The notes beneath the pieces are model-generated. The model searched no databases and was not told the DNA's origin. It saw only the letters and a list, made by a program, of their open reading frames with translations. Source: a virus. From it: a stretch of DNA of 64,000 nucleotides. Below are positions 1-15,692 of the stretch, piece after piece. How positions within the stretch are numbered: position 1 is the stretch's first letter; every line of letters begins with the position of its first letter. Location of the stretch: IMG/VR virus record IMGVR_UViG_3300020048_003367, positions 1 to 64,000 of that record; one strand, 5' to 3'. The position numbers and the translations under genes were made by a program.

Positions 1-72
1 CAGGGTGAGATTTGAACTCACGGTTTTAGGGATTTGCAATCCCTTGCGTTGGGCCGCTCCGCCACCTGTGCA
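1..72 (-). tRNA. tRNA-Cys(GCA), 3' end cut by window edge
   Basis: RC anticodon arm GGGA-TTGCAAA-TCCC; T-loop GTTCAAATC. Confidence 0.9.
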
Positions 73-79
73 TAAAAAT

Positions 80-153
80 TGGTCTCGGTAGCAGGAATCG
101 AACCTACGCTCCTGCGTCCCAAACGCAGAGTGATACCATTTCACCATACCGAG
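80..153 (-). tRNA. tRNA-Pro(TGG)
   Basis: Cloverleaf, CTGCG-TTTGGGA-CGCAG, encoded CCA. Confidence 0.92.
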
Positions 154-162
154 AAAACTAAC

Positions 163-238
163 TGGTACATCCTGACGGGCTCGAACCGCCGACATCAACC
201 GTGTAAGGATCGCGCTCTACCAACTGAGCTAAGGATGC
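163..238 (-). tRNA. tRNA-Val(TAC)
   Basis: Cloverleaf, loop CTTACAC, CCA. Confidence 0.92.
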
Positions 239-245
239 AAAAAAC

Positions 246-319
246 TGGAGCGGGGTACGAGGATCGAACTCGTCTCACTAGCTTGGAAGGCTAGAGCACA
301 GCCACTATACCAACCCCGC
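246..319 (-). tRNA. tRNA-Gly(TCC)
   Basis: CTAGC-CTTCCAA-GCTAG, GCG acceptor, U73, CCA. Confidence 0.93.
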
Positions 320-332
320 GTTAAATACGTTC

Positions 333-497
333 ATGTATATATATGATGCTATCACCAAGACCGGACTACTAATCCACTTGTCCATGAGCGAAGAACACAC
401 TTTCTACATTCTTGTGTTTGACATTGACAACTTCAAGTTGACCATGAAGTTTTTTAACAATATCGAAACAGCACTTGCTTTTATACAAGAGCTTTGA
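333..497 (+). CDS. 54-aa hypothetical protein antisense to the tRNA array (not in ORF track)
   Basis: MYIYDAITKTGLLIHLSMSEEHTFYILVFDIDNFKLTMKFFNNIETALAFIQEL*; fills the gap between two tRNAs; TAAATA 5 nt before ATG. Confidence 0.65.
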   Translation: MYIYDAITKTGLLIHLSMSEEHTFYILVFDIDNFKLTMKFFNNIETALAFIQEL

Positions 498-498
498 T

Positions 499-573
499 TG
501 GTGGTTGTAGTTGGTATCGATCCAACCTCCTCGGCTTATGAAGCCGGTGCGCATCCGTCTACGCCACACAACC
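499..573 (-). tRNA. tRNA(CAT), Met or Ile2; atypical T-loop ATCGATA
   Basis: CCGGC-TTCATAA-GCCGA; CCA. Confidence 0.82.
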
Positions 574-579
574 AGATTC

Positions 580-656
580 TGGGGTATAGTATGGAATTCG
601 AATCCATGCTGACGGAATCACAATCCGTAGTGCTAACCGCTGACACTAACTACACC
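580..656 (-). tRNA. tRNA-His(GTG)
   Basis: ACGGA-TTGTGAT-TCCGT, G-1 and C73. Confidence 0.92.
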
Positions 657-764
657 ATATAGAAACACACTCATTTCCTAGCTTTCGGTAAGCATGCCTG
701 CTGTTTAGGATAGCACCTGCGTCCAGTTGCTAGGTATCCCGACCGTGAATGTGTTTTTATATGG
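655..764 (-). ncRNA. Long-stem element A (AAACACA...TGTGTTT family)
   Basis: Terminal inverted repeat ccatatagaaacacactca / tgaatgtgtttttatatgg. Confidence 0.55.
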
Positions 765-836
765 TAGGGGCACAGAGAATTGAACTCTGATAGGTCGGTT
801 AAAAGCCGACTACTTTAGCCGTTAAGTTATACCCCC
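762..836 (-). tRNA. tRNA-Lys(TTT)
   Basis: GTCGG-CTTTTAA-CCGAC, CCA. Confidence 0.92.
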
Positions 837-839
837 ATA

Positions 840-914
840 TGGTCCATGCTCTGAGAATCGAACTCAGTTTGTCCGGGTAAGAGCCGGGTACTTCGCCAGC
901 AAAGTTTAGCATGG
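840..914 (-). tRNA. tRNA-Lys(CTT)
   Basis: CCGG-CTCTTAC-CCGG, CCA. Confidence 0.88.
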
Positions 915-997
915 ATGGATCGTAAAGTTTTGTCTTTTACGTGCCATCCAGGACCATACGGGGGTCTAGGATGACACTAGAGTTTACCTCGTTTCAT
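913..997 (-). promoter_or_regulatory. Minigene MKRGKL* (977-997) plus two alternative hairpins directly upstream of tRNA-Lys
   Basis: AAAGG SD-like; GTGTCATCC/GGATGGCAC competes with GGATGG..CGTAAAAG/CTTTACG..CCATCC. Confidence 0.55.
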
Positions 998-1024
998 GTC
1001 GTTACCTTTTGTGTTTAAGTTCTA

Positions 1025-1053
1025 ATTATACAACAATTACAGAATGTTGTCAA
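1025..1053 (-). promoter_or_regulatory. sigma70 promoter
   Basis: Perfect TTGACA-N17-TATAAT. Confidence 0.9.
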
Positions 1054-1062
1054 CTGTTTTTT

Positions 1063-1140
1063 TGGTGCGTCCCGAGGAATTCGAATCCCCAACCTCACGG
1101 CTTCGTAGGCCGGTGTTCTATCCAGTTGAACTAGAGACGC
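1063..1140 (-). tRNA. tRNA-Arg(ACG)
   Basis: CGGC-CTACGAA-GCCG, CCA. Confidence 0.92.
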
Positions 1141-1148
1141 ATTGTGAG

Positions 1149-1224
1149 TGGTGCCACGAGCTGGACTCGAACCAGCCACACACAGATTTTCAGTCTGCTG
1201 CTCTACCTGATGAGCTACCGCGGC
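1149..1224 (-). tRNA. tRNA-Phe(GAA)
   Basis: GCAGA-CTGAAAA-TCTGT, CCA. Confidence 0.93.
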
Positions 1225-1281
1225 GAAAAGAAATAGTCCAGGGACTTTCGTCACGTCAGGAGTGAGTGTAGACTATAAGAG

Positions 1282-1355
1282 TGGTGCCCCACGACAGAAT
1301 CGAACTGCCATCACAGGATTACAAAACCAGTGTACTGCCATTGTACTAGTAGGGC
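1282..1355 (-). tRNA. tRNA-Thr(TGT), weak anticodon stem
   Basis: GCC acceptor, loop TTTGTAA, T-loop GTTCGATTC; two U-U mismatches in anticodon stem. Confidence 0.8.
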
Positions 1356-1360
1356 GAATT

Positions 1361-1435
1361 TGGCTCCTCGACCTGGGCTCGAACCAGGGACCAATTGATT
1401 AACAGTCAACTACTCTACCACTGAGCTATCGAGGA
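1361..1435 (-). tRNA. tRNA-Asn(GTT)
   Basis: TCC acceptor, GTTGA-CTGTTAA-TCAAT, G73. Confidence 0.93.
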
Positions 1436-1442
1436 ATAAACA

Positions 1443-1518
<76 letters not shown>

Positions 1519-1526
1519 ATGTTGTT

Positions 1527-1616
1527 TGGCGGAACGACTGAGACTCGAACTCAGAAAGCCACTTTCGTGACTCGATGGATTAGCAATCCACTCCAATACC
1601 ATTATGGGACCGTTCC
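1527..1616 (-). tRNA. tRNA-Ser(GCT)
   Basis: GTGGA-TTGCTAA-TCCAT, long variable arm, G73. Confidence 0.92.
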
Positions 1617-1662
1617 ACTGACTTTTTACTTATAGACAGCACTCGCACCGACTACAAAAACT

Positions 1663-1741
1663 TGGCTCCGTGTGTGAGATTCGAACTCACCTAGTCACTG
1701 ATTAACAGTCAGGTCCTTGCACCTAGCTTGGATTTCACGGA
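1663..1741 (-). tRNA. tRNA-Asn(GTT), second divergent copy
   Basis: CTGA-CTGTTAA-TCAG, GCCA end. Confidence 0.85.
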
Positions 1742-1749
1742 ATAAAAAT

Positions 1750-1823
1750 TGGTAGCTCCAACAAGAATCGAACTTGTAATAAAGGCTTATCAAGCCTCCG
1801 TTATACCGTTTAACTATAGAGCT
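1750..1823 (-). tRNA. tRNA-Ile(GAT)
   Basis: GAGGC-TTGATAA-GCCTT, CCA. Confidence 0.9.
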
Positions 1824-1830
1824 GCAATAC

Positions 1831-1904
1831 TGGCACGGGAACCTGGGATCGAACCAGGGACGACAGAGTCAAAGTCTGTTGTGTTACCTCTACACCATTC
1901 CCGA
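1831..1904 (-). tRNA. tRNA-Gln(TTG)
   Basis: ACAGA-CTTTGAC-TCTGT, GCCA. Confidence 0.92.
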
Positions 1905-1913
1905 ACAAAAACT

Positions 1914-1990
1914 TGGCGTACCGCCAGGGATTCGAACCCCGAACCGCTGGTTTTGGAGACCAGAACTCTGCCAATTGAGCTAGCGATACA
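1914..1990 (-). tRNA. tRNA-Trp(CCA)
   Basis: CTGGT-CTCCAAA-ACCAG, GCCA. Confidence 0.92.
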
Positions 1991-1998
1991 TTAACATA

Positions 1999-2073
1999 TG
2001 GTGGACCGTAACGGGATCGAACCGTTCCTTAAGGCTTGCAAAGCCCTCGTGCCCCCAACAACACTTACAGCCC
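1999..2073 (-). tRNA. tRNA-Ala(TGC)
   Basis: Loop TTTGCAA, G3:U70 pair, ACCA. Confidence 0.92.
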
Positions 2074-2076
2074 ATA

Positions 2077-2184
2077 CATTCTAAAACACACTATGAGAAT
2101 CACACTTCCCAAGTTCTCACGCTTGGTTACAACTAGAAGTTACGGACTGATTTGGCAGTCCTGTGAGGAGTGTGTTTTAGAATG
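2077..2184 (-). ncRNA. Long-stem element B
   Basis: cattctaaaacacact / agtgtgttttagaatg, perfect 16-bp terminal stem. Confidence 0.55.
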
Positions 2185-2325
2185 CAGTGTATTGCTACAC
2201 CACATGACGGGGTTGATACCCCGACCAGGAGTCTTACTAGTGCGTTCTCACCACACGTTCATGTATCCTGTCCGCCCGTTTGCCTAGTTTAGTGTGCTGG
2301 CTGAGTCCTCGTTACTCATTACACA
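2185..2325 (-). ncRNA. Multi-hairpin structured RNA immediately after the attenuator terminator
   Basis: RC hairpins CGGGG-TATCAA-CCCCG and GTGTA-GCAA-TACAC; long-range CATGA/TCATG and CAGGA/TCCTG. Confidence 0.45.
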
Positions 2326-2326
2326 T

Positions 2327-2363
2327 AAAGAAAAACCCTGGAGTTTTTAGTTCCAGGGTCTTT
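2327..2363 (-). terminator. Intrinsic terminator of attenuator 1
   Basis: RC AAGACCCTGGA-ACTAAAAAC-TCCAGGGTTTTTCTTT. Confidence 0.85.
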
Positions 2364-2384
2364 TGAGTTTGTTAGTTACTGCTG

Positions 2385-2516
2385 TTATGCGTAACCACCA
2401 CCTTCACAAGACCCTGCGACTCCCGGAATACTATTCACGCGACCAAAGGCGTGCGACCAGGCTGTATTCGCCTGGAGCATGGATTTAGTTTGCAGTGAAC
2501 AAGAGATAGAAGTCAT
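2385..2516 (-). CDS. Leader peptide 1, 43 aa (not in ORF track)
   Basis: MTSISCSLQTKSMLQANTAWSHAFGRVNSIPGVAGSCEGGGYA*; SD AAGGA; 3' part carries the antiterminator strand CAGGGTCTT. Confidence 0.75.
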   Translation of the reverse strand: MTSISCSLQTKSMLQANTAWSHAFGRVNSIPGVAGSCEGGGYA

Positions 2517-2564
2517 TTTGTTTCCTTGGGTTACTCAATCAGCATTGCTGCTGTTCAAGTGTTA

Positions 2565-2593
2565 ATTATACTTTACTTAGTGATTGTTGTCAA
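2565..2593 (-). promoter_or_regulatory. sigma70 promoter driving leader 1
   Basis: Perfect TTGACA-N17-TATAAT. Confidence 0.9.
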
Positions 2594-2639
2594 CCACTAA
2601 ATGTTTTCAGTGCTGTATTTATACAACACGCCTTGAAAT

Positions 2640-2713
2640 TGGATGCGGGTGACAGATTTGAACTGCCGATGCACCTGGCTTATGAGACCGGTGTGGTGAC
2701 CACCCTACCCGCG
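2640..2713 (-). tRNA. Initiator-like tRNA(CAT) with reduced D-arm
   Basis: C1:A72 mismatch (CGCGGGT/ACCCGCA), CTCATAA loop; D region only GGTG-GT-CACC. Confidence 0.7.
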
Positions 2714-2769
2714 TAATTATTTATATCACATTATAGCTGACATCACATATGACGTCAACTGATTTTGGA

Positions 2770-2960
2770 TAAACTGAGCAGCCTACTATCTGATGTTTAA
2801 AGGTACTGACCGCTTTGATGCGCTCACTTCCTTCCACCAACATGGCTCGACTGTGACTAGCAGTCATGGTAACTTAATCCCCAGAGGTAGTGGATCAACT
2901 GGTGTCCCTGATAGTTGGGCCCATCGTCATTGAGTTTTTAACACAAGCCACTCAGTTTAA
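2770..2960 (-). ncRNA. ~190-nt RNA closed by a terminal stem
   Basis: RC AAACTGAGTGGCTT...AGGCTGCTCAGTTT; no convincing ORF. Confidence 0.4.
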
Positions 2961-2965
2961 CTTTT

Positions 2966-3057
2966 TGGTACCCCCACCGGGAATTGAACCCAGATGAACC
3001 AATTATCTGTTGCTTACGGGATATAAATCCGCCGTTTTACCATTAAACTATAGGGGT
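2966..3057 (-). tRNA. tRNA-Ile(TAT) with long variable region
   Basis: GCGGA-TTTATAT-CCCGT; ~22-nt variable region; ACCA. Confidence 0.75.
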
Positions 3058-3063
3058 AATTTC

Positions 3064-3155
3064 CCATTGAAAAACACACTCTTGAACAGTCCATAAGCGG
3101 TTACTCGCTGTCTCCCTAGGTAACAGGGCGAATCTGTAAGTGTGTTTATCAATGG
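3064..3155 (-). ncRNA. Long-stem element C
   Basis: ccattgaaaaacacact / agtgtgtttatcaatgg. Confidence 0.55.
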
Positions 3156-3226
3156 CGTCGCATACGGGTTACGATCCTGTCTGGTCACCTTTCAAGGTGA
3201 TAACCTCACCAGAAGTCTAATGCGAC
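3153..3226 (-). tRNA. Glu-like tRNA body with a non-7-nt anticodon loop (pseudo- or decoy tRNA)
   Basis: Acceptor GTCGCAT/ATGCGAC-GCCA; TCACC-TTGAAA-GGTGA; T-loop ATCGTAA. Confidence 0.6.
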
Positions 3227-3453
3227 ATGTTGAATTTGAAAGTAGTTGCGCCACTCGTTCATCGCAACCATTCGCCCGATTGCACTAGCCCGGACAGGAA
3301 GTGGTAAGTCACTTGGGATACTAGTCCAGTTTGTCTCCGTTACAGACACCACCCTTCCGAGTGGTTGGGAGTTGAACCCATCACCTTCTACTAACTTGGT
3401 CCTTCGAAGAAACCTCATTAGCGTGTTGTTCTCTTGCTGACACTCTCAAAACT

Positions 3454-3528
3454 TGGCGACTCGTGGGAGAATCGAACTCCCGTAAGCGGATAGACAATCC
3501 GCAGTAATGACCTCTATACGAACGAGCC
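3454..3528 (-). tRNA. tRNA-Asp(GTC)
   Basis: GCGGA-TTGTCTA-TCCGC, GCCA. Confidence 0.92.
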
Positions 3529-3534
3529 TTAACT

Positions 3535-3623
3535 TGGTGGAGTGTGATAGAATCGAACTACTTGGCAACCACCCCACTTGACAATGCCTACCGGGTTACA
3601 GCCGGCAATGGGGAACACACTCC
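3535..3623 (-). tRNA. D-armless tRNA-Tyr(GTA)-like RNA
   Basis: Acceptor GGAGTGT/ACACTCC-ACCA, GCCGG-CTGTAAC-CCGGT, normal T arm; only ~10 nt replace the D arm. Confidence 0.7.
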
Positions 3624-3743
3624 AAAAACTTTAGACTACTAGACCCGATCATAACTGCAACCAAGCAGCATGGCAACGGATTTTTCATCAGGGCGGCGTA
3701 CTGCATTCTGCTGGTTAGGCGTCCTGCCTCGGCAACCCAAAAC

Positions 3744-3828
3744 TGGTGGAGATGATAGGGATCGAACCTATCGTGACCGAAGTCGGAGGAGTTACAGTCC
3801 CCTGCCACACCATTGCGGCGTCATCTCC
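3744..3828 (-). tRNA. tRNA-Tyr(GTA)
   Basis: GGGGA-CTGTAAC-TCCTC, variable arm, ACCA. Confidence 0.92.
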
Positions 3829-3833
3829 AGATA

Positions 3834-3906
3834 GCAGTTGGAATCTTACTTCGTCACGCTCTAGACGTAACGGTCTGATGGAGCAAACCACGATTCAAGC
3901 AACTGC
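3834..3906 (-). ncRNA. Small stem-closed RNA between tRNA-Asp and tRNA-Tyr
   Basis: RC GCAGTTG..GAATC...GATTC-CAACTGC. Confidence 0.4.
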
Positions 3907-3913
3907 CAAAACT

Positions 3914-3988
3914 TGGCGCGACATGGGAGAATCGAACTCCCGTCTTCGGATAGACAATCCGAGATAATGACCATTATATGAATGCCGC
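3914..3988 (-). tRNA. tRNA-Asp(GTC), second copy
   Basis: TCGGA-TTGTCTA-TCCGA, GCCA. Confidence 0.92.
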
Positions 3989-3994
3989 TAAAAT

Positions 3995-4195
3995 TGGATA
4001 AGCTACTTGTTTCCACGCAAGCCCTTAATTGAGTTGTTACACTGTCCATCTCCATTTATTCGAAGTCTGTGTGCAGTTGAGATTCTGCCTATCAGATTCT
4101 GCGGGGGTAGTTTCCATCCCTGCGCTTACGGTCTTCTGCCACCGGAACTCTGTCGCTATTCAAACGCTACTTTAAAGAAAGTAGTAACTGGATTC
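3995..4195 (-). ncRNA. ~200-nt structured RNA candidate
   Basis: RC terminal pairing CTACTT/AAGTAG; internal hairpins CCGGTGGCAGAAGACCG and GGGATGGAAACTACCC. Confidence 0.4.
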
Positions 4196-4281
4196 TTGAC
4201 GCAATCGGAACAGTACTCCGATATCTACACTAAGGTACCCTAGTGTCGTTTTGTTCTAGTATTAAACTATGCGAAATTCTT

Positions 4282-4356
4282 TGGAAGAGCATAGGAGAAT
4301 CGAACTCCTCTTGGCTGGATGAAAACCAGCTGTCCTAACCGATAGACGAATGCTCC
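4282..4356 (-). tRNA. tRNA-Glu(TTC)
   Basis: GCTGG-TTTTCAT-CCAGC, T-loop GTTCGATTC, CCA. Confidence 0.88.
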
Positions 4357-4420
4357 ATGTAAAAATTCACTGTGCTCATCTGCTTATTAAGGCGATTTGA
4401 CTGTTCGGCACAGTGAATAA

Positions 4421-4502
4421 AATCATATTGAAACACACTGGATAACCACCATACTTCCGGGTCTTACGCCGGCTATGTCTCTCAGAATGTTTCAATATGA
4501 TT
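4421..4502 (-). ncRNA. Long-stem element D
   Basis: aatcatattgaaaca / tgtttcaatatgatt, 15-bp stem. Confidence 0.5.
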
Positions 4503-4597
4503 CCTCGCTACACGTTCTTTCACAAGATTGTGGACTGTTATCACTGGGCAACAAAATCGTGCTTTGTGTTGTCTTGCGAGGATATCATACAAGTAAG

Positions 4598-4638
4598 TTT
4601 TTAAGGAACCTTACAGCAGCTACTCGATCGTTTGCTGC
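4598..4638 (-). promoter_or_regulatory. boxB-like hairpin plus boxA-like antitermination site
   Basis: RC CAGCAAAC...GCTGCTG then GTTCCTTAAAAA (cf. rrn boxA GYTCTTTAANA). Confidence 0.5.
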
Positions 4639-4647
4639 TAAGTGTTT

Positions 4648-4676
4648 ATTATAACACTGTTTGGAATATTCGTCAA
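4648..4676 (-). promoter_or_regulatory. sigma70 promoter (tandem, proximal)
   Basis: TTGACG-N17-TATAAT, extended -10 TG. Confidence 0.85.
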
Positions 4677-4743
4677 CTGCTTCTGTGTCTCTTAGCAGTG
4701 CTACCGTTTCCGGAGCAGTTGTGTTTCTTCCTAACTAGCCACT

Positions 4744-4772
4744 AGTATAACACGATGTGCAATATTAGTCAA
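4744..4772 (-). promoter_or_regulatory. sigma70 promoter (tandem, middle)
   Basis: TTGACT-N17-TATACT, extended -10 TG. Confidence 0.8.
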
Positions 4773-4842
4773 CTTGTTTTGCAAAAGCCCCGCATCACTA
4801 CAGGGTCTTTGCAAACTTTGCTGTCTTTCCCGACTTGTATCT

Positions 4843-4871
4843 ATTATAACACTGTTTCAATTATTGGTCTA
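4843..4871 (-). promoter_or_regulatory. sigma70 promoter (tandem, distal)
   Basis: TAGACC-N17-TATAAT, extended -10 TG. Confidence 0.7.
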
Positions 4872-4877
4872 GCACTT

Positions 4878-4908
4878 AAAGAAAAACCCGCATCATGTGC
4901 GGGTCTTT
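4878..4908 (-). terminator. Intrinsic terminator of attenuator 2
   Basis: RC AAAGACCCGCA-CATGA-TGCGGGTTTTTCTTT. Confidence 0.85.
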
Positions 4909-4927
4909 GTGGAATGTAGTACTTTTG

Positions 4928-5026
4928 TTAACTACAATGACAAAGACCTCGCCCACAATCGTGTTCATAGGCCTGCTCATAATTGGCAGGTATGTTTTTG
5001 AACGCGAATGCTGTTTGTGTCATCAT
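4928..5026 (-). CDS. Leader peptide 2, 32 aa, probably leaderless (not in ORF track)
   Basis: MMTQTAFAFKNIPANYEQAYEHDCGRGLCHCS*; ATG 5 nt after TATAAT; 3' part GGTCTTTGT..TGTAGT is the antiterminator strand. Confidence 0.7.
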   Translation of the reverse strand: MMTQTAFAFKNIPANYEQAYEHDCGRGLCHCS

Positions 5027-5063
5027 AGTGTATTATATATATGCCTGTGAACTAAAAGTCAAT

Positions 5064-5090
5064 AAAAAAGGTGCCCGAAAGCACCTTTTT
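5064..5090 (-). terminator. Terminator after porin
   Basis: aaaaaaggtgc-ccgaaa-gcaccttttt. Confidence 0.8.
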
Positions 5091-5105
5091 GAACACATGC
5101 TTGGA

Positions 5106-5981
5106 TTAGAAGCGGTGTGTAATGCCCACGCCAACTTGACGGATGTCTGTTGCAGCATTGACATTGCGGTACGAAACACCGGCCACTGTTCGCTTGCTCA
5201 ACGCATAGTCCATGCCCAGGTTGTAGGCACGAACACCAGTGTTGGTATCGCCCACGCTGGCCTTGGCAGTGTATGCACCAAATGCTTGGCTCACACCAAC
5301 CAAGTGACCTTTAGAAGCCACAACACCTTGGTTGTCACTGTAGCTGTAGAACACATTGGTTCCGCCTAGTTTGGTAGTTGCGCCAACCACAGTGCTCTTT
5401 TCTGAGCCTGCTTCGTAACGAGCAACACTGGCTGCAACTGCGCCAAACTTGGCACCTGCAGAAACCGCAGTAGCTTCGGCACCTGCAGCGGTCAATGTAC
5501 GGTCAATACCGACTGTGACACCTGGCAGTGCAGTGAGGGCCACAAACACGCCATTGCTAACGCGAACGCCACGCAAGTTGTGGATGTCGCCAGCCACTGA
5601 TCCATAGTTGGTGTCAAATGCGTCCAAGGAGCTCACAGTGTTAAACAAGCTGTGTGTGTTGCGACCAAAGTCTACGCTACCAAAACGATTTGCCAGGCCC
5701 ACTGTGCTTTGACGATCGCCCAGTTGTGTGGCAGAGCCTGTTACAGGATCTTGGCTAGCAATACTAGTTTCGATCACAGCACGAGCGCTCATGCCATTGC
5801 CCAAGTCTTCTGTGACTCGGAAGCCAATACGACTGGTGTCATTTACAATGCTGGAAACTGCGGCAGCAGAACCAGTTCGAGTGCTATCCACAGTAGCGTT
5901 GATCTTGCCATATACAGTGACTTGAGCGGAGGCTGCAAAAGCAGCAGCGGCCAAAGTGGCTGCAATTAAGATTTTCTTCAT
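5106..5981 (-). CDS. Gram-negative trimeric porin (betaproteobacterial type)
   Basis: Signal peptide, VTVYG start, SRIGF..EDLGNG motif, C-terminal GITHRF. Confidence 0.92.
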   Translation of the reverse strand: MKKILIAATLAAAAFAASAQVTVYGKINATVDSTRTGSAAAVSSIVNDTSRIGFRVTEDLGNGMSARAVIETSIASQDPVTGSATQLGDRQSTVGLANRFGSVDFGRNTHSLFNTVSSLDAFDTNYGSVAGDIHNLRGVRVSNGVFVALTALPGVTVGIDRTLTAAGAEATAVSAGAKFGAVAASVARYEAGSEKSTVVGATTKLGGTNVFYSYSDNQGVVASKGHLVGVSQAFGAYTAKASVGDTNTGVRAYNLGMDYALSKRTVAGVSYRNVNAATDIRQVGVGITHRF

Positions 5982-6095
5982 TTTTAAGTTTCCTTTTGTT
6001 GATCGGCTACAGGATGTAACCTTGTGTAAATTTTACACTTGAACAGTTATTTAAGCGACCTGGCATTTGTCCAAAAGAAAACCCGCCGAAACGGG

Positions 6096-6265
6096 TTACC
6101 TTAGCAGGCTCAGGGCCAGCTCTCTAGCGTCTTGTAATCTATCCAGTACATGGTTGCTCAGGGGTTCATCACCATCTTCGTCAACTGTAACTGGCCTGCG
6201 ATAAGCAACCTGTAAGTCTTGTATTTCAAAGTCTTCACTGTCGCTATCGCAGAGGTCTAGATCAC
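6096..6265 (-). CDS. Small acidic hypothetical ORF, start unresolved
   Basis: Protein-like reading SDLDLCDSDSEDFE...ARELALSLLR; no clean start after the upstream stop. Confidence 0.35.
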
Positions 6266-6501
6266 TTGCCTGCTGGCTTGGCTGGTGCTGCAGGAGCAGC
6301 AGTTGCTGCTTTTTCGTCCTTGACAACGGCACTTTTGGCAGGCTTCTTTTCTTCTTTCTTAACTGCTGCTTTGGCAGGAGTTGCTGGAGCACTTGCTGCT
6401 GGAGCAGGAGCTGCGGCAGCTGGGGCGGCTGCTTTGGGGGCGTCAGCTGCGAAAGCGGACATTGCGAACACTGCCAAAACGGATACGATTGCTGATTTCA
6501 T
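6262..6501 (-). CDS. Secreted Ala/Pro/Lys-rich small protein
   Basis: Signal peptide ending AFA; low-complexity body; SD AAGGA. Confidence 0.8.
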   Translation of the reverse strand: MKSAIVSVLAVFAMSAFAADAPKAAAPAAAAPAPAASAPATPAKAAVKKEEKKPAKSAVVKDEKAATAAPAAPAKPAGK

Positions 6502-6590
6502 GATAAGTTTCCTTGGGTTAGTGTAGACAGAACCTTTCCGCCTACATATATATAACGCGGTAGCCCAGCAAGGCGTTTACAACAGTCCAA

Positions 6591-6617
6591 AAGAAAAGCA
6601 CCCGAAAGTGCTTTCTT
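6591..6617 (-). terminator. Terminator after tmRNA
   Basis: RC AAGAAAGCAC-TTTCGG-GTGCTTTTCTT. Confidence 0.8.
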
Positions 6618-6920
6618 GCTATTTTCTGTTACGAGGTATAACTACCCTAGGAAGCTTTTATCAAGCAGCCAATGCGTAGACGGAGTCGTTTGCATTTAAA
6701 GGTTTTGTGTCTACGACCGGGTTACCCCAATCCTAACGGCTTCTACATTGCCGGACTGTCCATTTCAATACTTGTGACCCAATCGATCCTGTGTCATCCC
6801 CACCTAACTATACTCAATTATAGTGAATTATAATAAATTATAGTGAATTATAGTTAGGTGGAGATGGCGGGCACTGCCCCCGCGTCTTGAATCCTTTTCT
6901 GTCTACTTCATACAGTCTTA
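6618..6920 (-). ncRNA. ssrA: Two-piece (circularly permuted) tmRNA, tag ANDSVYALAA
   Basis: Acceptor piece ending GCGGG-GGCAGTG-CCCGC-CATCTCC-ACC (to 6857) precedes coding piece starting GGGGATG (6801); tag ORF 6693-6661. Confidence 0.92.
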
Positions 6921-6926
6921 ACTCTT

Positions 6927-6955
6927 AGTATACTTGAATCTTTATTAATTGTCAA
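6927..6955 (-). promoter_or_regulatory. sigma70 promoter for tmRNA
   Basis: TTGACA-N17-TATACT. Confidence 0.85.
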
Positions 6956-7910
6956 GTAGTGTTTGCTCAACCGCTTGAATCAATCCAGGTGTAAAGGTGC
7001 CTTCGAATTGCTGATACACACTGGCCAACTCTAGCTTGGCAGCATCACGCTGTGCTTGAGTCCACTTGGTGATAGTTGCACCTTGCTCAATCAAGCGCTG
7101 TTCAGCACGTTCACCATCAGCAATGGTTTCTGCACGTTCTTCACGACCGGCCAGGATCGCAGCTTTCTTGACAATTTCTTGCACAGCCGGGCTCAACGAG
7201 TCCCAGAACCTGTCGCCAATGATCATGGAAGTAAGGAACAAACTGTGGCCGGTATCGATCACTGACTTGGTAACTTCGTTCTGACGCAGTGGGAACACAC
7301 GTGGATAGTTGGTTTCACCGCCTTCGGCTAGGCCTTCATTTACAACCTTGAGCAAGTCTTCTACTTCGGCCACAACAGGCTTCATGCCTAGCGCAGACAA
7401 AGTAGCTTGTGCAACTGGGTTGCGGTTGCTGCGAACACCAACCCCAGCCAGTTCAGCCAAGGTGCTTACTTGCTTGTTGGCAATCAACTGACGGAAACCG
7501 CCTGAATAGGTAAAGCTCAAGCCACGCACATTGGATTTGGCAGCTAGCTTTTGCAGTAGAGTTTCGCCAATGTTGCCTTCTAGCACTCGTGTGGCATGGT
7601 CGTGATCTTTAAACAAGAATGGCATGTCAAACACCAAGAAGTCTTGTTCGTACTTTTCGGCCAACCAAGTGGTGTACATCTGGCTCATCTCAATCTTGCC
7701 TTGCTCCATGAGTTCCAACAAATCGTGCTTGGTAACAACCACGCCATTGTTGTAGCGTTGGCTGTACTCAGTCAAGGTCATAATTTCAACCTCGATCTTG
7801 TGTTCAGTTTGCTGTTCATTAACACGGCGCTCGAAGTCTTCGGCTGCACGTAGGAAAAGATTCAGGGGTTCGTGGGCAATAACCCAACGGATTTTAGTAG
7901 TGTTGTTCAT
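6945..7910 (-). CDS. TRAP-type substrate-binding protein (DctP-like) without signal peptide
   Basis: FDMPFLFKDHDHA, GGFRQL, L.G..VR, FWDSLSPAVQEIV motifs. Confidence 0.85.
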   Translation of the reverse strand: MNNTTKIRWVIAHEPLNLFLRAAEDFERRVNEQQTEHKIEVEIMTLTEYSQRYNNGVVVTKHDLLELMEQGKIEMSQMYTTWLAEKYEQDFLVFDMPFLFKDHDHATRVLEGNIGETLLQKLAAKSNVRGLSFTYSGGFRQLIANKQVSTLAELAGVGVRSNRNPVAQATLSALGMKPVVAEVEDLLKVVNEGLAEGGETNYPRVFPLRQNEVTKSVIDTGHSLFLTSMIIGDRFWDSLSPAVQEIVKKAAILAGREERAETIADGERAEQRLIEQGATITKWTQAQRDAAKLELASVYQQFEGTFTPGLIQAVEQTLLDN

Positions 7911-8034
7911 TTTTGTTCCAAAAATATGTTTGATTAGCTTGCGATTAACGCTACGGCCCGGCGTTCCATATGGTAAAAGGGCCTTGCCCTAGGCGTCGTT
8001 GTAACCGGCGTCGGCCCCTGCCGGCGCTGCTTGA

Positions 8035-8934
8035 TTATTTATCTACCTTGACGTCTTGGCTTAGACGTTTCCACAAAGTCACTTGGTTATCAAACCAACG
8101 TTGCGTGTCTGCTACACCAAGATTGCTAGCATCACAAAAATCCACAGCATAGGCTTTTTGCACATTATCTGCACGGGCTACATCAACAACCAAGGCACGT
8201 AATTCGTTGTATTGTGTATCGGGCATGCTTTTTGGCACTTGCAAACTGTGCATATTTACAACCTCTCCAACCCCAGCAAAACCTTGACTTTCAAGTGTAG
8301 CTATGCCACGAACTGTTTTCTTGCCTGAAATTCCTAATGCAGCAAGTTCGTGCTGGTCCAGGAATCCCACAACTTCGCCCAAAAATGCCACGCTGAGATC
8401 TAGGTTACCTGCAATAACATCAATGCTGGCCTCACGTGTGCCTTTGTAGGGTACCACTGTGGCGTTGGGATAACGCTTGACAATCTCCATGGCCATAAGG
8501 TGCGAGGTTGCGCCAAGTCCGGATATTCCTATACTGATATTTTGATTGCGATCAATTTCTTTAAACGACTTAAACTTCTTGGAAACAATCAGCATAGGGG
8601 CTGCGCACTGCGTCATTAAAGGTCGAAAGTCTGCCACAACATGGCTTTCTTTTGGGTAAAAATTAGGGCGTACAAAAAACGCAGTGCTTGAGCTCAATAT
8701 AGAATTTGTATTGGTAGCCACATGTTTGGCACCGATAGTGGCACCTGCTCCCGGTTTGTTTTCCAGGATAAAGTTGTATTTCTTTTGAGTCTTGTTTAGC
8801 TCTTCAATCAAGCTGCGACTGTATTGTGCCTGAGTGTCGCCCATGCCAAAAGGCCAAACAATAGAGATAGTTTGTTGTGCGTGTGCAGCACATGCGAATG
8901 CTGTGATAGCAGCAGAGAGCAATAGTTTTTTCAT
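8035..8934 (-). CDS. Tripartite tricarboxylate transporter substrate-binding protein (Bug/TctC)
   Basis: ENKPGAGATIG, SGLGATSHL, VPYKG motifs; signal peptide. Confidence 0.88.
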   Translation of the reverse strand: MKKLLLSAAITAFACAAHAQQTISIVWPFGMGDTQAQYSRSLIEELNKTQKKYNFILENKPGAGATIGAKHVATNTNSILSSSTAFFVRPNFYPKESHVVADFRPLMTQCAAPMLIVSKKFKSFKEIDRNQNISIGISGLGATSHLMAMEIVKRYPNATVVPYKGTREASIDVIAGNLDLSVAFLGEVVGFLDQHELAALGISGKKTVRGIATLESQGFAGVGEVVNMHSLQVPKSMPDTQYNELRALVVDVARADNVQKAYAVDFCDASNLGVADTQRWFDNQVTLWKRLSQDVKVDK

Positions 8935-10115
8935 TTGAATAGTTCTTGCGATGTATCAGTATTGGAGTAATCGGCTGGCCCTAGATCGTAGAATGTGTCC
9001 ATGAATCCCACAAACCCAACTGGTCTGCCCATTTCGTATGTAAAGAACTTGGGATCAATCTTGTCTACCATGTGCTGTACGCCAGCCTTCCACACTTCGT
9101 AAAAGCGTGTTTCGGTAAAGTTCTTGAAAAACCACCAGCCCATTTCGCTGTAGAAGTTGTTGGTGCTTTTCATTGTTTGCCACGTGGTGGGATCATAATC
9201 TTCGTAGATCAGTGGACGAGCGATTTGCTCATATGCGTTGCGTTGTGCTGGGCTGTGGTTAGGCCAGCGCATTAGGAATTGCAAATGCCTGGTATGCGGC
9301 AGCTGGAACCAATTACGAATTGTGTGAGCTTGCTTGATAATTAATTCAGGAATGTCTGGTTGCCAATAAAAGTATTCTGTGGTCAGATTGGTATAAGGGC
9401 CTACAGTGGCTTGACTATGATTGGCTTGAATATCCAAAAAATACAAGTACCAACGACCGTCTTTGATACAGATCTTGGGCTTGTCAATCCCGTATAACAC
9501 ACAGATACTCTTGCCAGATTCTGCCAGTTGCTTGTGGCCATCAAACCCCAACGGATCATGTTTGAATGTGTGTTCTGGGTGCAGGTAATCTCTTGCACGT
9601 TCTACCCAAGACTCATCACCTTTGTAGTCAAGAATATTTTGACTAAAGTCGTGCATGGTAATTTTTATGTTGGGATGGCTCAGTGCTAGCTTTTGCAACA
9701 CCGGTTTGGCTGCAAAGTGCCACTCGCTAAGAGTGTTCTCTGCTTTCATGTTCTTGGCATCGGGACCAAGATTTTTGTCGCCTTGTGCAGGATAACGAAA
9801 CACTACTTCATCTAGATGAATTCCATTGTTGATAAAACTGTATAGCACTGTGGTGCTGTCCGATCCGCCACTGAATTCCAAACGAATGTAGTCGTATTTT
9901 TCACGAAGCTGTTTGGCTCTCATGCGATAAAGATCTCGCAAACTCAGCTGCGGTTCTATAGTTGTATCTATCTTGCTGTAGACTTCTCTGTTGAAATTAA
10001 AGTGAGGGAAGTGCCCTGTGGCTGTGGCTTCCAACAATGCTTGTGGCTTGCTGTAAAAGCGTTTGTCTCCTACAGTGTAAAAGCCCAGTTTGGGATTGTT
10101 TTCTAATTGTATCAC
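8931..10115 (-). CDS. PP-loop (adenine nucleotide alpha hydrolase) family protein
   Basis: LREKYDYIRLEFSGGSDS; GIDKP. Confidence 0.75.
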   Translation of the reverse strand: MIQLENNPKLGFYTVGDKRFYSKPQALLEATATGHFPHFNFNREVYSKIDTTIEPQLSLRDLYRMRAKQLREKYDYIRLEFSGGSDSTTVLYSFINNGIHLDEVVFRYPAQGDKNLGPDAKNMKAENTLSEWHFAAKPVLQKLALSHPNIKITMHDFSQNILDYKGDESWVERARDYLHPEHTFKHDPLGFDGHKQLAESGKSICVLYGIDKPKICIKDGRWYLYFLDIQANHSQATVGPYTNLTTEYFYWQPDIPELIIKQAHTIRNWFQLPHTRHLQFLMRWPNHSPAQRNAYEQIARPLIYEDYDPTTWQTMKSTNNFYSEMGWWFFKNFTETRFYEVWKAGVQHMVDKIDPKFFTYEMGRPVGFVGFMDTFYDLGPADYSNTDTSQELFK

Positions 10116-11029
10116 TTGCGTGGCTCTAGTGTAGGTAACAGTTGATATACCTTGATTGCTTCGCTTTGTATAAATTGTTGCAAATCTTTTGTATATCGCC
10201 CTTGGGTGATTGTTCCTAGTTTTGCGTAAGTGTTGGCCTCTGTTTTGGTTGCGTTGTCAAGGGCATTTTGTACTTGCTTGACCAAAACTGGGTCCGCTGA
10301 ATTGTTGGCAAACACCATGAACCAATTGATTGGTCCGCTAACTGCATTTATACCTTGTTCTTTTAATGTGGGCACATCGGGCATAGCTGGATGACGTAGT
10401 TTTCCAGTCACTCCTAATACTACCAACCGACCATCATCTAAATAAGGCTTGGCCCCGCTTAGAATGGAAAATACTGCACCTAAATTTCCTCCAGCAACAT
10501 CAATCAATGCCGGAGCTTCGCCCTTGTATGGCACATGAGTCATGTTCTGTTTAGTGTGCTGTTGTATCATGGCCATTGCGATAGAATTACCTGAGCCAAC
10601 TCCTGAACTTCCATAAAATACTTGAGACTTTAAAAACTTAGGCAATGTGTCTAGTGGGCCGTCTTTTTTGACCATCAAAAACATAGGCACAGCCCCCAAA
10701 TGAACAATGGGCTGAAAGTCAAGCATGGTGTATCCTGCGCCTGACTTGGTGCTGTTGACTACTACATTGAGACTGTGCAGCATCAGCACAGTTTCTTTGC
10801 CGGTTGATCGAGCTAGCATTTGGGCAGCAATGGCTCCACCTGCACCAGAATGAATCTCTGGTACAAAGTTATGTGCAGGAATACGCTCATTCAAGTGCTT
10901 GGCAATAATTCGTGCAGTTATGTCGCCCGACCCGCCAGGTGCGTACGGCACAATAAGTTTGATGTTGTCTGCTTGAGCAGCAAAACTGTACAAAGCTAAC
11001 GCGATGGCAGTTACAAAATGTTTTAACAT
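10112..11029 (-). CDS. Bug/TctC substrate-binding protein, second paralog
   Basis: IKLIVPYAPGGSGD, GAGGAIA, HVPYKG, PDVPTLKEQG. Confidence 0.92.
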   Translation of the reverse strand: MLKHFVTAIALALYSFAAQADNIKLIVPYAPGGSGDITARIIAKHLNERIPAHNFVPEIHSGAGGAIAAQMLARSTGKETVLMLHSLNVVVNSTKSGAGYTMLDFQPIVHLGAVPMFLMVKKDGPLDTLPKFLKSQVFYGSSGVGSGNSIAMAMIQQHTKQNMTHVPYKGEAPALIDVAGGNLGAVFSILSGAKPYLDDGRLVVLGVTGKLRHPAMPDVPTLKEQGINAVSGPINWFMVFANNSADPVLVKQVQNALDNATKTEANTYAKLGTITQGRYTKDLQQFIQSEAIKVYQLLPTLEPRK

Positions 11030-11031
11030 TG

Positions 11032-12189
11032 TTATTTTCCTAGATAATATGGGGGGCTTGTGTCTCTGAAAAAACCTTGAGACATACTTTTGGGATCACG
11101 TTTGCATGCATCAGGAGTTGTGCGCCATAAGTGCTCAAGGCCAACTCGCCAAGAATATTTAGCGATGTCCGAATCAGGCAAATTAAAAAACCAAGTGTCT
11201 CGCGGTGTAAAAAATGTGCTCTTTGTCTTGGCCTGAAATGGAACTTGCTGCCACCAAGGATAGATCAATTGGTTTATAGTGCTCAATGTGAGCCAAAGCA
11301 CTTGTCCTTGGTAAGTGAACGATACCAGGCCAATTCTTTCTGTAGTAACACCGGGGGTGGTATTGTTTGCACTCTTGAGAAAACGTTTGACTACGTGAGC
11401 CTGCTTGATAGGAATCAGCGGAGCTTCTGGAGACCAATAAAACAATTCGTCATGTTCCCAGTCTCTATTGAGTTTTTGTACTAAGGGGCTTACTGCGGTA
11501 TCTACCATGTTGACAAATTGATAATAAAAATCTCCGTTGATACCGGTTACTTTGGGTTTGTCAACACCGTGAATGAATCCTACACGCAGCCCTTGATCCA
11601 CCATGTTCATCCAGTCTGGCACTTTAGTTTTTATATCTCTGCGAGCCAATACATTGGGATTTTGATAACTGTTTACATCGTAGATCCAGTCAAACTTGTC
11701 TTCTTTGCCTGAGAACGAATCCATTGTGATTTGAGAAAGATCTAGTATGCGATGCTTGAGCCAAGGTTGTTTGACTTGTGCTGACTCTATCCAAGGCACC
11801 GCCACATTATAAATTTCGGCATTGAGAAAGTTAAACTTGTCACCAGTGGCATCATAGTTGACGTAACTGACTACTTCATCAATGCGAATGTTAAAGTTTA
11901 AAAATGTGTTTAAAATATTACCCGAGTCTGCACCGCCTGAGAACCACAATACAAGATAATCATATTTTTCTCTCAGACGCTGTGCATGCTGTCGATACAA
12001 CTCTTCAAGAGATTCTGGCGGCTCTTGCAACCAATCAAAACTAGAATAAACTTCTTGGTTAAAATTCCAGGCAACTTTTTGTCCGCCTTTGGCATGCTCA
12101 TATGCTTCATTTCTACTGTAGCTTCGAAAATCGCCAACTTGATAAAAACCAAAACGATCTTGATTATTAGATATCTGTATAATTGTCAT
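11032..12189 (-). CDS. PP-loop family protein, second paralog
   Basis: LREKYDYLVLWFSGGADS; GVDKP; FYW.P..P...IKQAH shared with 8931-10115. Confidence 0.75.
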   Translation of the reverse strand: MTIIQISNNQDRFGFYQVGDFRSYSRNEAYEHAKGGQKVAWNFNQEVYSSFDWLQEPPESLEELYRQHAQRLREKYDYLVLWFSGGADSGNILNTFLNFNIRIDEVVSYVNYDATGDKFNFLNAEIYNVAVPWIESAQVKQPWLKHRILDLSQITMDSFSGKEDKFDWIYDVNSYQNPNVLARRDIKTKVPDWMNMVDQGLRVGFIHGVDKPKVTGINGDFYYQFVNMVDTAVSPLVQKLNRDWEHDELFYWSPEAPLIPIKQAHVVKRFLKSANNTTPGVTTERIGLVSFTYQGQVLWLTLSTINQLIYPWWQQVPFQAKTKSTFFTPRDTWFFNLPDSDIAKYSWRVGLEHLWRTTPDACKRDPKSMSQGFFRDTSPPYYLGK

Positions 12190-13724: not shown

Positions 13725-15692
13725 TCAAGTTTCTTGTGGCCTGTCCCATTGACCAGATCCTTGCCAATTTAATTCAAAGTTAGTAGATTTATTGTCCCAG
13801 TCATCAGCTACGAGTTTGTAATCAAATTTGGCACTCCAGTTCCCATCAAGATCAATTTTGAAGTCGTAAGTGGCCCAGAACTCATGTCCACCGCCTAATG
13901 GATACCTAAGGTATCCGTATTCTTTTTTGTCTTCTTCGGGATCAAATCTAATAGTGATATTAAACGGCCCCATACCCAACCAAAGCACACGTAGCAAAGC
14001 CCAGACTTCGTTTACCAAAGTATCGGCAACTGGATTTATATTGACCTTGATAACTTCGTAATCAAAATCTGGCTCCCACGGAATCTTATTTTCGGCCCAG
14101 TTCTTGGGGTCTGAATCAAGAGTGTACTGAGATTGTAAACCGGAATATGTTATGTTATTAGTGTGCTGAAAATAGTCTCTATGGGTTTTATGATTACGAA
14201 ATCTTTCCAACAGAATGTTACTGAACTTAAATCGCAAAAATCTATGAAACACAGTATTGCGCATATCAGTTGTATGCCAGCCCCATGACCAATCTGAATC
14301 AGACACTCCAAATTTATCACGCTCAGTGTCTAACGGTGTGTTTACGCCTAGCCCGCATGTGCCCATGCTTTGCTGTCCCATTCCCGAGTTTCTCAAACGC
14401 CACAGCATGGTAAGACTTTCTGCCACATGCTTTATTTCTTCTCCGGGAAATCCAGTAAACCATGTGGCAAAATTATTGTACATGCCCAAGGATGCAAAAT
14501 CTTCAAAATTTTGTTCAATCCATTCTGTCTTGCACTTTTTCCTCATGAGGTCCAAGGTATGCTGACTTCCTGATTCTACCCCAAATGCAAACCCCAAAGC
14601 ACCTGCTCGTTGCATTAGTTGCCAGGTATCCCGATCAATGCGGCCATCAATTCTTGCATAGCCCGTCCAAGTCACACGTATTTTTCTGTCTATCAAGCCT
14701 TGGGCAAATGCCTCGAGTTCTTTTAAATTGCCGTTGAGTAGACTGTCTATAAAATAGACCGAGTGTATTTTTTGTGCTCGATACACAGTTTCAATTTCAT
14801 CTAGTACTCGATGCGACTGTCTTGCTCGAAATTTCCAAAACGTTGTTTCGTTACAGTACGCACAACTGGCAATACATCCACGTGAAAACTCACATGTAAT
14901 TCCTTTTGATTCATATAATGAAATGTCAAAGTCTGAGTAATCGGCAGGTGGCATTGAGTCAAGATCTACTCTTTGATCTCGAGATTGTGTTATCACATGA
15001 GGTAGTACTCCCTGGGGATTCTCATAGTGTTCCAGCAGTTGAACCCACAACAGCTCACCTTCACCTGATATAACATGATCAGCTGCGGTGAGATCTGTAA
15101 CTATTCCTTGAGTGGCGCTGGCTCCTCCATACACAATGATCACTCCGGGCAGTAGTTCTCGTAAACGAGTTGAGATATACTGAGCGCAGCAATTGTTGGT
15201 GTACCAAATAGAAAATCCAATTATAGTAGGTTGATATTCTACAATCTCGTTAATTTTTTGATCTAGTAGATGCACAATTGTTGGATGTATGTGCTCACTA
15301 TAGTATGGGTCTTGCCACTTCCAATCTGCGTATGCGGTCCAGTACTCTTGCGGACCATTATGATAGCAATGTATATTGATATCCCAGGTCTTTGTTTTGA
15401 ACCCCATGTGACTACTTAATGCAGCCATTCTAGCAACTCCGTAAGGAGGAGAATTTGTGGCCCACTCGGGTGCAATAACCAATGCCACGCGATTGACCCG
15501 GTTGGCCTCGGTTTCTTGTAACAATACTTCTGTCAGATTTTTTTGTTTTCGACTAGGCACAGTATCTTTTTTGATCTGTTGATTTGCCTGTAAAAACATT
15601 TCAGTAACTTGTGAATGTATATCAGTAGTTACTGCACTAAACACAGGTGCCTGTGTTGTTTGAATTGGTATTACTTTGCGTGGTTCGTCCAT
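13725..15692 (-). CDS. B12-binding-domain radical SAM enzyme
   Basis: SRGCIASCAYC, VYGGASAT, GEGE, GVESGSQ, GFPGE. Confidence 0.88.
   Translation of the reverse strand: MDEPRKVIPIQTTQAPVFSAVTTDIHSQVTEMFLQANQQIKKDTVPSRKQKNLTEVLLQETEANRVNRVALVIAPEWATNSPPYGVARMAALSSHMGFKTKTWDINIHCYHNGPQEYWTAYADWKWQDPYYSEHIHPTIVHLLDQKINEIVEYQPTIIGFSIWYTNNCCAQYISTRLRELLPGVIIVYGGASATQGIVTDLTAADHVISGEGELLWVQLLEHYENPQGVLPHVITQSRDQRVDLDSMPPADYSDFDISLYESKGITCEFSRGCIASCAYCNETTFWKFRARQSHRVLDEIETVYRAQKIHSVYFIDSLLNGNLKELEAFAQGLIDRKIRVTWTGYARIDGRIDRDTWQLMQRAGALGFAFGVESGSQHTLDLMRKKCKTEWIEQNFEDFASLGMYNNFATWFTGFPGEEIKHVAESLTMLWRLRNSGMGQQSMGTCGLGVNTPLDTERDKFGVSDSDWSWGWHTTDMRNTVFHRFLRFKFSNILLERFRNHKTHRDYFQHTNNITYSGLQSQYTLDSDPKNWAENKIPWEPDFDYEVIKVNINPVADTLVNEVWALLRVLWLGMGPFNITIRFDPEEDKKEYGYLRYPLGGGHEFWATYDFKIDLDGNWSAKFDYKLVADDWDNKSTNFELNWQGSGQWDRPQET

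Follow-up and report, generated by a model that had tools for sequence, protein, structure and literature searches.

How might a phage arrange to make its own tRNAs when they run short? The question is raised by IMG/VR virus record IMGVR_UViG_3300020048_003367, a 101,862-bp phage contig (44.8% G+C) whose first 64 kb, positions 1 to 64,000, are the stretch analyzed here (the window). The purpose of phage tRNA genes has been debated for fifty years, and to our knowledge their regulation is almost unstudied. In the window, two minus-strand units, which we call unit 1 and unit 2, share one layout: a sigma-70 promoter, a short open reading frame (ORF), an intrinsic terminator, and then a block of tRNA genes. 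An earlier reading of the letters alone (the original prediction) took these units for attenuators whose leader codons match the tRNAs downstream. Every element of the layout is indeed in place (Table 1): in both units, a short ORF with a start signal precedes the tRNA genes, and an intrinsic terminator stands between the two.

We argue that each unit is probably a ribosome-operated transcription attenuator placed before a phage tRNA block, with a leader whose composition mirrors that block and that senses tRNA shortage. That the units are attenuators operated by a ribosome is very likely; that they sense, amino acid by amino acid, the set of tRNAs encoded downstream is likely.

In this scheme, RNA polymerase would start at the strong sigma-70 promoter. 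A ribosome would enter the short ORF by way of a 5'-terminal AUG or, as in leader 1 of this record, of a Shine-Dalgarno (SD) sequence. If all codons were decoded quickly, the ribosome would reach the last third of the ORF and cover, or have just unwound, the 5' strand of an antiterminator; with that strand masked, the terminator hairpin would form, and transcription would end before the tRNA genes. If the ribosome lagged in the first two thirds of the ORF, the antiterminator strand would be free to pair with the emerging 5' arm of the terminator, and the polymerase would continue into the tRNA genes, the same outcome that is expected if no ribosome loads. The amino acids of the leader are almost those of the tRNAs behind it, mostly at one or a few codons apiece, so that transcription of a block would go up whenever any of the tRNAs it can supply became scarce. 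In other words, the control would be a negative feedback on supply. Translation of the leader, the efficiency of termination, and tRNA shortage as the signal are parts of the scheme that we infer, and starvation or host anticodon nucleases as causes of the shortage are guesses.

A Family of Related Units

Relatives were gathered from IMG/VR and lake metagenomes by a porin-anchored search and by DNA pattern scans; the loose-pattern scans of viral contigs gave mostly chance loci, and their output was filtered by blastn and by anatomy. The result is a set of 87 distinct units, which form 43 clusters at a nucleotide distance of 30%, on IMG/VR and lake-metagenome contigs, with L-numbers, such as L003 or L012, as the labels of the relatives' loci. 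All 87 combine a consensus promoter and a terminator with an ORF of 25-48 codons that starts with ATG, and in all of them an antiterminator strand overlaps the end of the ORF (-13 to -25 kcal/mol). The terminator hairpin is almost invariant across the family, loop included. Same-strand tRNA genes follow in 76 units; in the remaining 11, the end of the locus is reached or the flank is shorter than about 2 kb, and all adequately flanked units precede tRNA genes.

The leader peptides fall into three types: A, which includes leader 1 of the window; B, which heads arrays in phages that apparently have a single leader; and C, which includes leader 2. Among the cultured phages of INPHARED, queries with positions 2300-5100 and with the leader 1 unit returned only tRNA-Glu similarity or nothing, and none of these phages shows the element. 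A scan of bacterial genomes gave 17 pattern matches, with true units on only two contigs of one metagenome-assembled genome; these contigs are probably binned phage DNA and hold no information about a host.

Is the RNA Switch Real?

In both units, as had been claimed, the last codons of the ORF are complementary to the 5' arm of the terminator, with predicted duplexes of -19.6 kcal/mol in unit 1 and -18.8 kcal/mol in unit 2. That is, the antiterminator shares a strand with the terminator, and its other strand is the one that a finishing ribosome would mask. Against shuffled sequences, the folding of leader 1 has a z-score of -5.5, with the antiterminator as its minimum free energy structure; for leader 2, the z-score is -4.5, and the antiterminator is the centroid structure.

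Comparison among relatives gives the RNA switch good support. In 30 short-form units, including leader 2 of the window, the antiterminator is paired in 87% of cases, with 28 two-sided changes (9.2 +/- 2.2 in shuffles; reached in 0 of 500) and a covariation of 0.215, which falls to at most 0.074 when the alignment is slid; the terminator is paired in 96.5%, with 16 two-sided changes (2.4 expected). The two helices share four columns and are therefore mutually exclusive. For the long-form subgroup to which leader 1 belongs (20 type A units), pairing holds in 83% of cells vs. 53% when slid by one column.

The effect of a ribosome was modeled by computing partition functions for the downstream RNA that it does not cover. 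Folding with and without such masking, a check that the original prediction had proposed, yields the predicted switch. For leader 1, the probability of the terminator is 0.03 in the naked RNA and no higher than 0.07 while the A site is anywhere in codons 2-30; once codon 31 is reached, it rises to 0.78-0.98. For leader 2, it is 0.02 in the naked RNA, at most 0.10 at codons 2-8 and 15-21, and 0.6-0.8 at codons 11-14, and it never falls below 0.74 past codon 21; the Tyr/Glu-rich codons 15-21 lie inside the predicted read-through zone. With a ribosome at the stop codon, the probability is at least 0.94 in 87 of 87 units. In naked RNA, it is below 0.5 in 66% of units, from which an untranslated leader should, according to the model, read through, unlike the trp attenuator.

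Could such a switch work without a ribosome, by binding a tRNA or another ligand directly in the manner of a T-box or riboswitch, so that the open frame is incidental? A terminator/antiterminator design upstream of translation-related genes is what one would expect of it. Positions 1-6500 hold no match to a T-box or other Rfam family that reaches threshold (for the T-box, none at E up to 1); Trp_leader (RF00513) matches 4878-4963 with 25.8 bits, below its gathering score of 41 (E = 0.059). We rejected the T-box and other known RNA families on this ground. The region before the antiterminator evolves fast and has no conserved core that resembles a ligand pocket, and the frame, with its conserved start signal, is open almost throughout 43 clusters. 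All this makes a non-coding switch the least credible of the readings that we considered, with very little chance of being right.

Is the Leader ORF Real?

Of 88 units, 87 keep the annotated frame open, the sole exception running into the terminator loop, whereas the other two frames are open across the same span in 0 and 11 of 87. Relatives keep the frame and the position of the stop although indels shift the local reading of the antiterminator strand, and type A relatives in particular keep the frame of leader 1 in spite of indels. The start signal, too, is kept, in two interchangeable forms, leaderless or SD-led. The ATG lies at most 11 nt past the -10 box in 82 of 87 units; an SD-led leader is limited to a subgroup made up of the window, L012, L145, and L262. 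In unit 2, an ATG-ATG begins 5 nt past the -10 box with no SD, and because most units of the family place the ATG 5-10 nt past this box, unit 2 appears to be leaderless in type. Over 44 minimum-spanning edges, 86 codon changes are synonymous in frame, compared with 53 and 51 out of frame, and differences are spread nearly evenly over the three codon positions (124/134/151). This pattern would fit a leader peptide in which openness and codon content matter more than sequence. With the ORF, the pairing, and the compensatory changes of the short-form units in both helices, relatives keep what the original prediction expected homologs to keep.

Might the ORF instead be a small early protein gene, followed by an ordinary leaky terminator whose strength is tuned by the complementarity? 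Type A peptides share a W-S-H/R core and those of types B and C a G-G-L ending, there is a modest excess of synonymous changes, and phage early regions are rich in small genes, all of which one would want of a functional peptide. Yet near-even differences across codon positions speak of weak constraint on the peptide sequence (and led us to reject a functional small protein as the principal explanation), and it is the antiterminator strand itself that spells the G-G-L ending. Against a protein gene stand also the compensatory changes in the antiterminator, the overlap of this strand with the end of the ORF in every unit, and the position of the units, which is always before tRNA genes. We regard a small protein gene as improbable.

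Does Leader Content Mirror the Downstream tRNAs?

The match is clearest for leader 1. Its codons 2-32 cover all 16 amino acids of block 1 and lack Asp, Glu, and Tyr, as had been noticed; Leu is the one amino acid that they add. Scored over the 20 amino acids, leader and block agree in 19, and random peptides of phage composition agree in 12.4 +/- 1.7 (P = 6e-5); among 116 mechanical ORFs of 38-48 aa, leader 1 alone reaches 19. Leader 2 is a different matter. It holds all five amino acids of block 2, as had been proposed, plus many others, and the proposed excess over chance, which stood for leader 1, did not survive for leader 2 alone (agreement 11-12/20, P 0.10-0.18). The original prediction also gave block 2 two tRNA-Tyr genes, where ARAGORN finds one.

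Across the family, agreement is 14.1/20, compared with 11.0 when blocks are permuted over all units and 13.1 when they are permuted within type, and it is stable at window offsets of 0-6 codons. In type A, one representative per divergent cluster with a complete array gives 18.7 vs. 17.3 +/- 0.3 (0 of 20,000 permutations). Thirteen divergent representatives with at least 15 tRNAs are concordant in 240 of 260 cells, and what is jointly absent varies by lineage: Cys in four, Ala in one, His in one, Phe in two, Tyr in seven, and Asp and Glu in eight or nine. Divergent units with complete arrays were also contrasted in disjoint pairs, which replaced nearest-neighbor contrasts. Six such pairs of representatives gave nine differences in the same direction and none in the opposite one (sign test p = 0.002; permutation of amino-acid labels p < 1e-5), and in one pair, Ala was lost and Cys gained in both leader and block. 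Leader codons thus covary with tRNA content at the amino-acid level among divergent relatives, as the original prediction had hoped. Where a block has no tRNAs for Asp, Glu, and Tyr, its leader has no codons for them either, and they are concentrated in leaders whose blocks begin with these tRNAs. Leu-rich type C leaders stand before blocks that start with two tRNA-Leu genes, and the Leu-poor leader 2 of the window stands before a block without them; this association is probably a single evolutionary event.

The finer claim, that the codons of leader 1 are mostly those of the exact isoacceptors, stands only in part: six Ser TCN codons, two Leu codons, and its GCC codons have no reader in block 1. 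Matching between leader and block holds at the amino-acid level more than at the isoacceptor level, and we rejected isoacceptor-exact matching as a general rule, contradicted as it is by unread TCN, GCC, CCC, and ACC codons.

Does the composition, then, matter at all? One can imagine a ribosome-operated attenuator that reports the global state of translation (inhibition, ribosome shortage, or early infection) rather than specific tRNAs and whose leader composition has no role in sensing. It would be at home with the read-through predicted for naked RNA in the window and in most units, with single dispersed codons in place of runs, with isoacceptor matching that is only partial, and with close relatives that differ in their tRNAs while the leader is unchanged; the tRNA array of Anabaena, moreover, responds to general translational stress (PMC8421152). 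It would not lead one to expect leaders that track their own blocks better than other blocks in type A, contrasts that run nine to none in direction, or the distribution of Asp, Glu, and Tyr just described. On balance, we think such a generic sensor unlikely, while giving it more credit than either the small protein or the non-coding switch.

Several results weigh against the proposed attenuation of the tRNA blocks, and they should be set out together. The agreement of leader 2 is, as we have said, not significant alone, and the third-position excess in the leaders is weak. In the 20 units of the leader 1 subgroup, compensatory change in the antiterminator is not above that in shuffles, which we attribute to a shared strand that hardly varies. 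In representatives with large blocks, the block tRNAs can decode only 71-93% of the codons in the sensing zone. Ser TCN codons are systematically unmatched, being present in 12 of the 21 representatives that lack a TCN-reading tRNA in the block, and GCC, CCC, and ACC codons are often without a reader. Contrasts on supported branches of the leader tree, a test of little power because such branches are few, gave 7.6 changes in the same direction, 2.3 in the opposite direction, and 49 without a leader change, which is not significant. Nearest-neighbor pairs show 35 block differences without a leader change, largely, we believe, because inserted ORFs and cut loci leave the ends of arrays ill defined. 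In some type B units (L247:6030-7452 on the minus strand, L153, L193, and L223), a DctP-like gene without a signal sequence and an ORF of 145-153 aa without a Pfam match lie between attenuator and tRNAs, so that the switch would govern protein genes there too. Finally, consensus promoters lie downstream of the unit 2 attenuator (4871, 4772, and 4676) and inside the blocks (2758 and 1053), and much tRNA transcription may bypass the switch through them. Given these promoters, we read the attenuators as probably adding an inducible layer over other transcription and not as the sole gate.

Relation to Known Systems

How much of this is new? In trpL, hisL, and pheL (for pheL, see the review PMC3082878), slow decoding of leader codons leads to read-through, and a finishing ribosome masks the 5' strand of the antiterminator. 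The phage units resemble these amino-acid-operon attenuators in having a short leader, an intrinsic terminator, and an exclusive antiterminator, and the nearest design is that of the thr and ilvGMEDA leaders, which are multivalent and likewise sense several amino acids. They differ in what they regulate, which is tRNA genes and not biosynthetic genes, and in how they are composed: trp/his-type leaders have runs of one to three, whereas the phage leaders have no runs of codons for an end-product amino acid and carry roughly one codon each for up to 17 amino acids. Most phage units are also leaderless, unlike those of the amino-acid operons. No anti-antiterminator (1:2) helix is predicted for them, as the low terminator probabilities of the naked window leaders reflect, and an untranslated leader would read through and not super-attenuate. 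The units are not sequence members of Rfam Trp_leader or of any other Rfam family.

A second likeness is to the drug-sensing leader-ORF attenuators, such as vmlR and bmrCD of Bacillus and lmo0919 of Listeria, in which full translation favors the terminator and a stalled ribosome frees the antiterminator. In the phage units, too, read-through would be the default without translation, and the output would relieve a translation problem. In those systems, however, a drug stalls the ribosome, in many cases together with a particular nascent peptide, and the output is an ABC-F factor or a transporter; in the phage units, leader composition mirrors tRNA genes. The T-box shares with them a terminator/antiterminator switch that senses the state of a specific tRNA and has translation-related targets, but there no ribosome takes part and the RNA contacts uncharged tRNA directly, by means of a specifier codon and the T-box sequence, whereas the phage sensor would be a conserved ORF.

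The closest published parallel in function is bacterial. The trn operon of Anabaena sp. PCC 7120 (the L-array, with 26 tRNA genes) is induced by translational stress (PMC8421152), and the TrcR repressor binds tandem 9-nt direct repeats over its -10 box and transcription start site (PMC10272220). Like the phage blocks as we read them, it is a supernumerary, horizontally mobile tRNA array that is kept low and is induced once translation falters. The likeness goes no further than function. Control by TrcR acts on initiation, the array sits on a bacterial megaplasmid and not in a phage, and the words attenuator, terminator, and leader peptide do not occur in the 2021 Anabaena paper (PMC8421152). 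The mechanism that we propose is classical leader-peptide attenuation, and its use on tRNA genes we have not found published. A full-text literature search found no attenuator before tRNA genes, in phages or elsewhere, which agrees with the original prediction that none had been described for phage tRNA arrays.

If our reading is true, a conserved switch with a test peptide that mirrors the tRNAs would show that these phages make tRNAs on demand, and the leader would be a direct readout of the tRNAs that a phage expects to run short. Classical attenuation would be extended from amino-acid supply to tRNA supply, and the unit would be a compact natural sensor of decoding speed at many codons at once.

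Why would a phage want such a thing? Phage tRNA genes have been proposed to serve codon compensation, replacement of a degraded host pool, or escape from tRNA-cutting defenses (PMC10264068, PMC11555353, PMC11464382), and recent work describes phage tRNAs overcoming tRNA-cutting defenses. Such defenses are a plausible natural trigger. One may go further and suppose a circuit for the surveillance and repair of the tRNA pool, in which the leader is a roster of the tRNAs replaceable by its block and the loss of any one of these, through a host defense nuclease or phage-driven exhaustion of the host pool, stalls the ribosome and so switches on the phage copies. We offer this extension tentatively, as something possible on which we would not yet bet. 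If it is true, phage tRNA arrays would be an inducible counter-defense cargo with a built-in sensor and not constitutive helpers of codon usage.

The tRNA Array and Its Other Promoters

The contig has 28 tRNA genes, 25 of them in a single array at 1-4356 (Table 1), and the tRNA-Cys gene of block 1 extends past the contig start. Much of the sequence of the spacers between tRNA genes in the array looks structured.

Table 1. Features of the two units and of the array in which they lie (positions in the window)
Feature	Positions	Strand	Details
Unit 2 promoter	5062-5032	-	TTGACT; TATAAT at 19 nt or TATATA at 17 nt
Leader ORF 2	5026-4928	-	32 codons + TAA; homologs in L003, L012, L001, L039, L066, L098
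Unit 2 antiterminator 5' strand	4953-4939	-	Codons 25-30
Unit 2 antiterminator 3' strand and terminator	4878..4912	-	Hairpin (4904-4886) + T-run to 4878
Three further sigma-70 consensus promoters	4648..4871 (4871, 4772, 4676)	-	Between unit 2 terminator and first tRNA
tRNA block 2	2640..4356	-	Glu, Asp, Tyr, Asp, odd tRNA-like gene, Ile(TAT), promoter 2758-2730, Met(CAT)
Unit 1 promoter	2593-2565	-	TTGACA-17-TATAAT; 12/12 consensus match; kept in relatives
Leader 1 5' untranslated region	2517..2558	-	Small 5' hairpin + SD AAGGA (2527-2523)
Leader ORF 1	2516-2385	-	43 codons + TAA; predicted sensing zone codons 2-30
Unit 1 antiterminator 5' strand	2420-2403	-	Codons 33-38
Unit 1 antiterminator 3' strand and terminator	2327..2364	-	Hairpin (2359-2335) + T-run; hairpin with loop nearly invariant across family
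Structured spacer RNA	2074..2326	-	Unit 1 terminator to first tRNA; alignment, some compensatory pairs
tRNA block 1	1..2073	-	Ala Trp Gln Ile Ser Gly Asn Thr Phe Arg; then Lys Lys His Met Gly Val Pro Cys
Internal consensus promoter + SD-led 6-codon mini-ORF	915..1053	-	Two Lys codons; directly before two tRNA-Lys genes

The three tandem promoters beyond the unit 2 terminator each have an extended -10 TG and stand ahead of predicted short, hairpin-rich, conserved transcripts before tRNA-Glu; two of the three are kept in relatives L003 and L012. Farther down, at 3153-3226 and 3538-3624 on the minus strand, are two odd tRNA-like genes. One of them has, according to ARAGORN, a two-base anticodon and corresponds to genes called as tRNA-Glu in L012 and L003; the other has a weak match to the tRNA-Sec model alone (E = 0.034).

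After the unit 1 terminator comes a spacer RNA of about 180-250 nt that is common to many type A relatives and has no Rfam match. A subgroup of type A (L140:1049-1298 on the plus strand, L239, L263, and L278) has a small SD-led ORF in its place, directly after the terminator. Inside block 1, the promoter before the tRNA-Lys genes is a perfect consensus, and its mini-ORF follows a pattern, M-K-(R/Q)-x-(x)-K-x-stop, that is found before tRNA-Lys in six relatives; a conserved hairpin begins at the stop codon of the mini-ORF, and no terminator follows it. In L012 (7370-7830, plus strand), an ORF with Cys-rich, HNH-like motifs is apparently inserted in or beside an array tRNA gene and, judged by these motifs, is likely a homing endonuclease; similar inserted ORFs interrupt the arrays of other relatives.

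The Genome and Its Possible Host

Genes on the contig are oriented along the minus strand. Host-like auxiliary genes adjoin the array (5106-12189, minus strand), namely a Gram-negative porin, a DctP-like protein, and two Bug/TctC-like binding proteins, the genes for the last two alternating with ORFs that lack a Pfam match; at 13725-15692 lies a gene for a radical SAM/B12-domain protein. These porin, DctP-like, and Bug/TctC-like genes, together with sigma-70 consensus promoters that are spread throughout the genome, suggest a freshwater betaproteobacterial host. An ATG 5-7 nt past the -10 box also occurs at other consensus promoters, at 18345 in the window and at 99022 and 83238 in the genome; at 101748 in the genome, the ATG after the -10 box opens a 5' hairpin and not an ORF.

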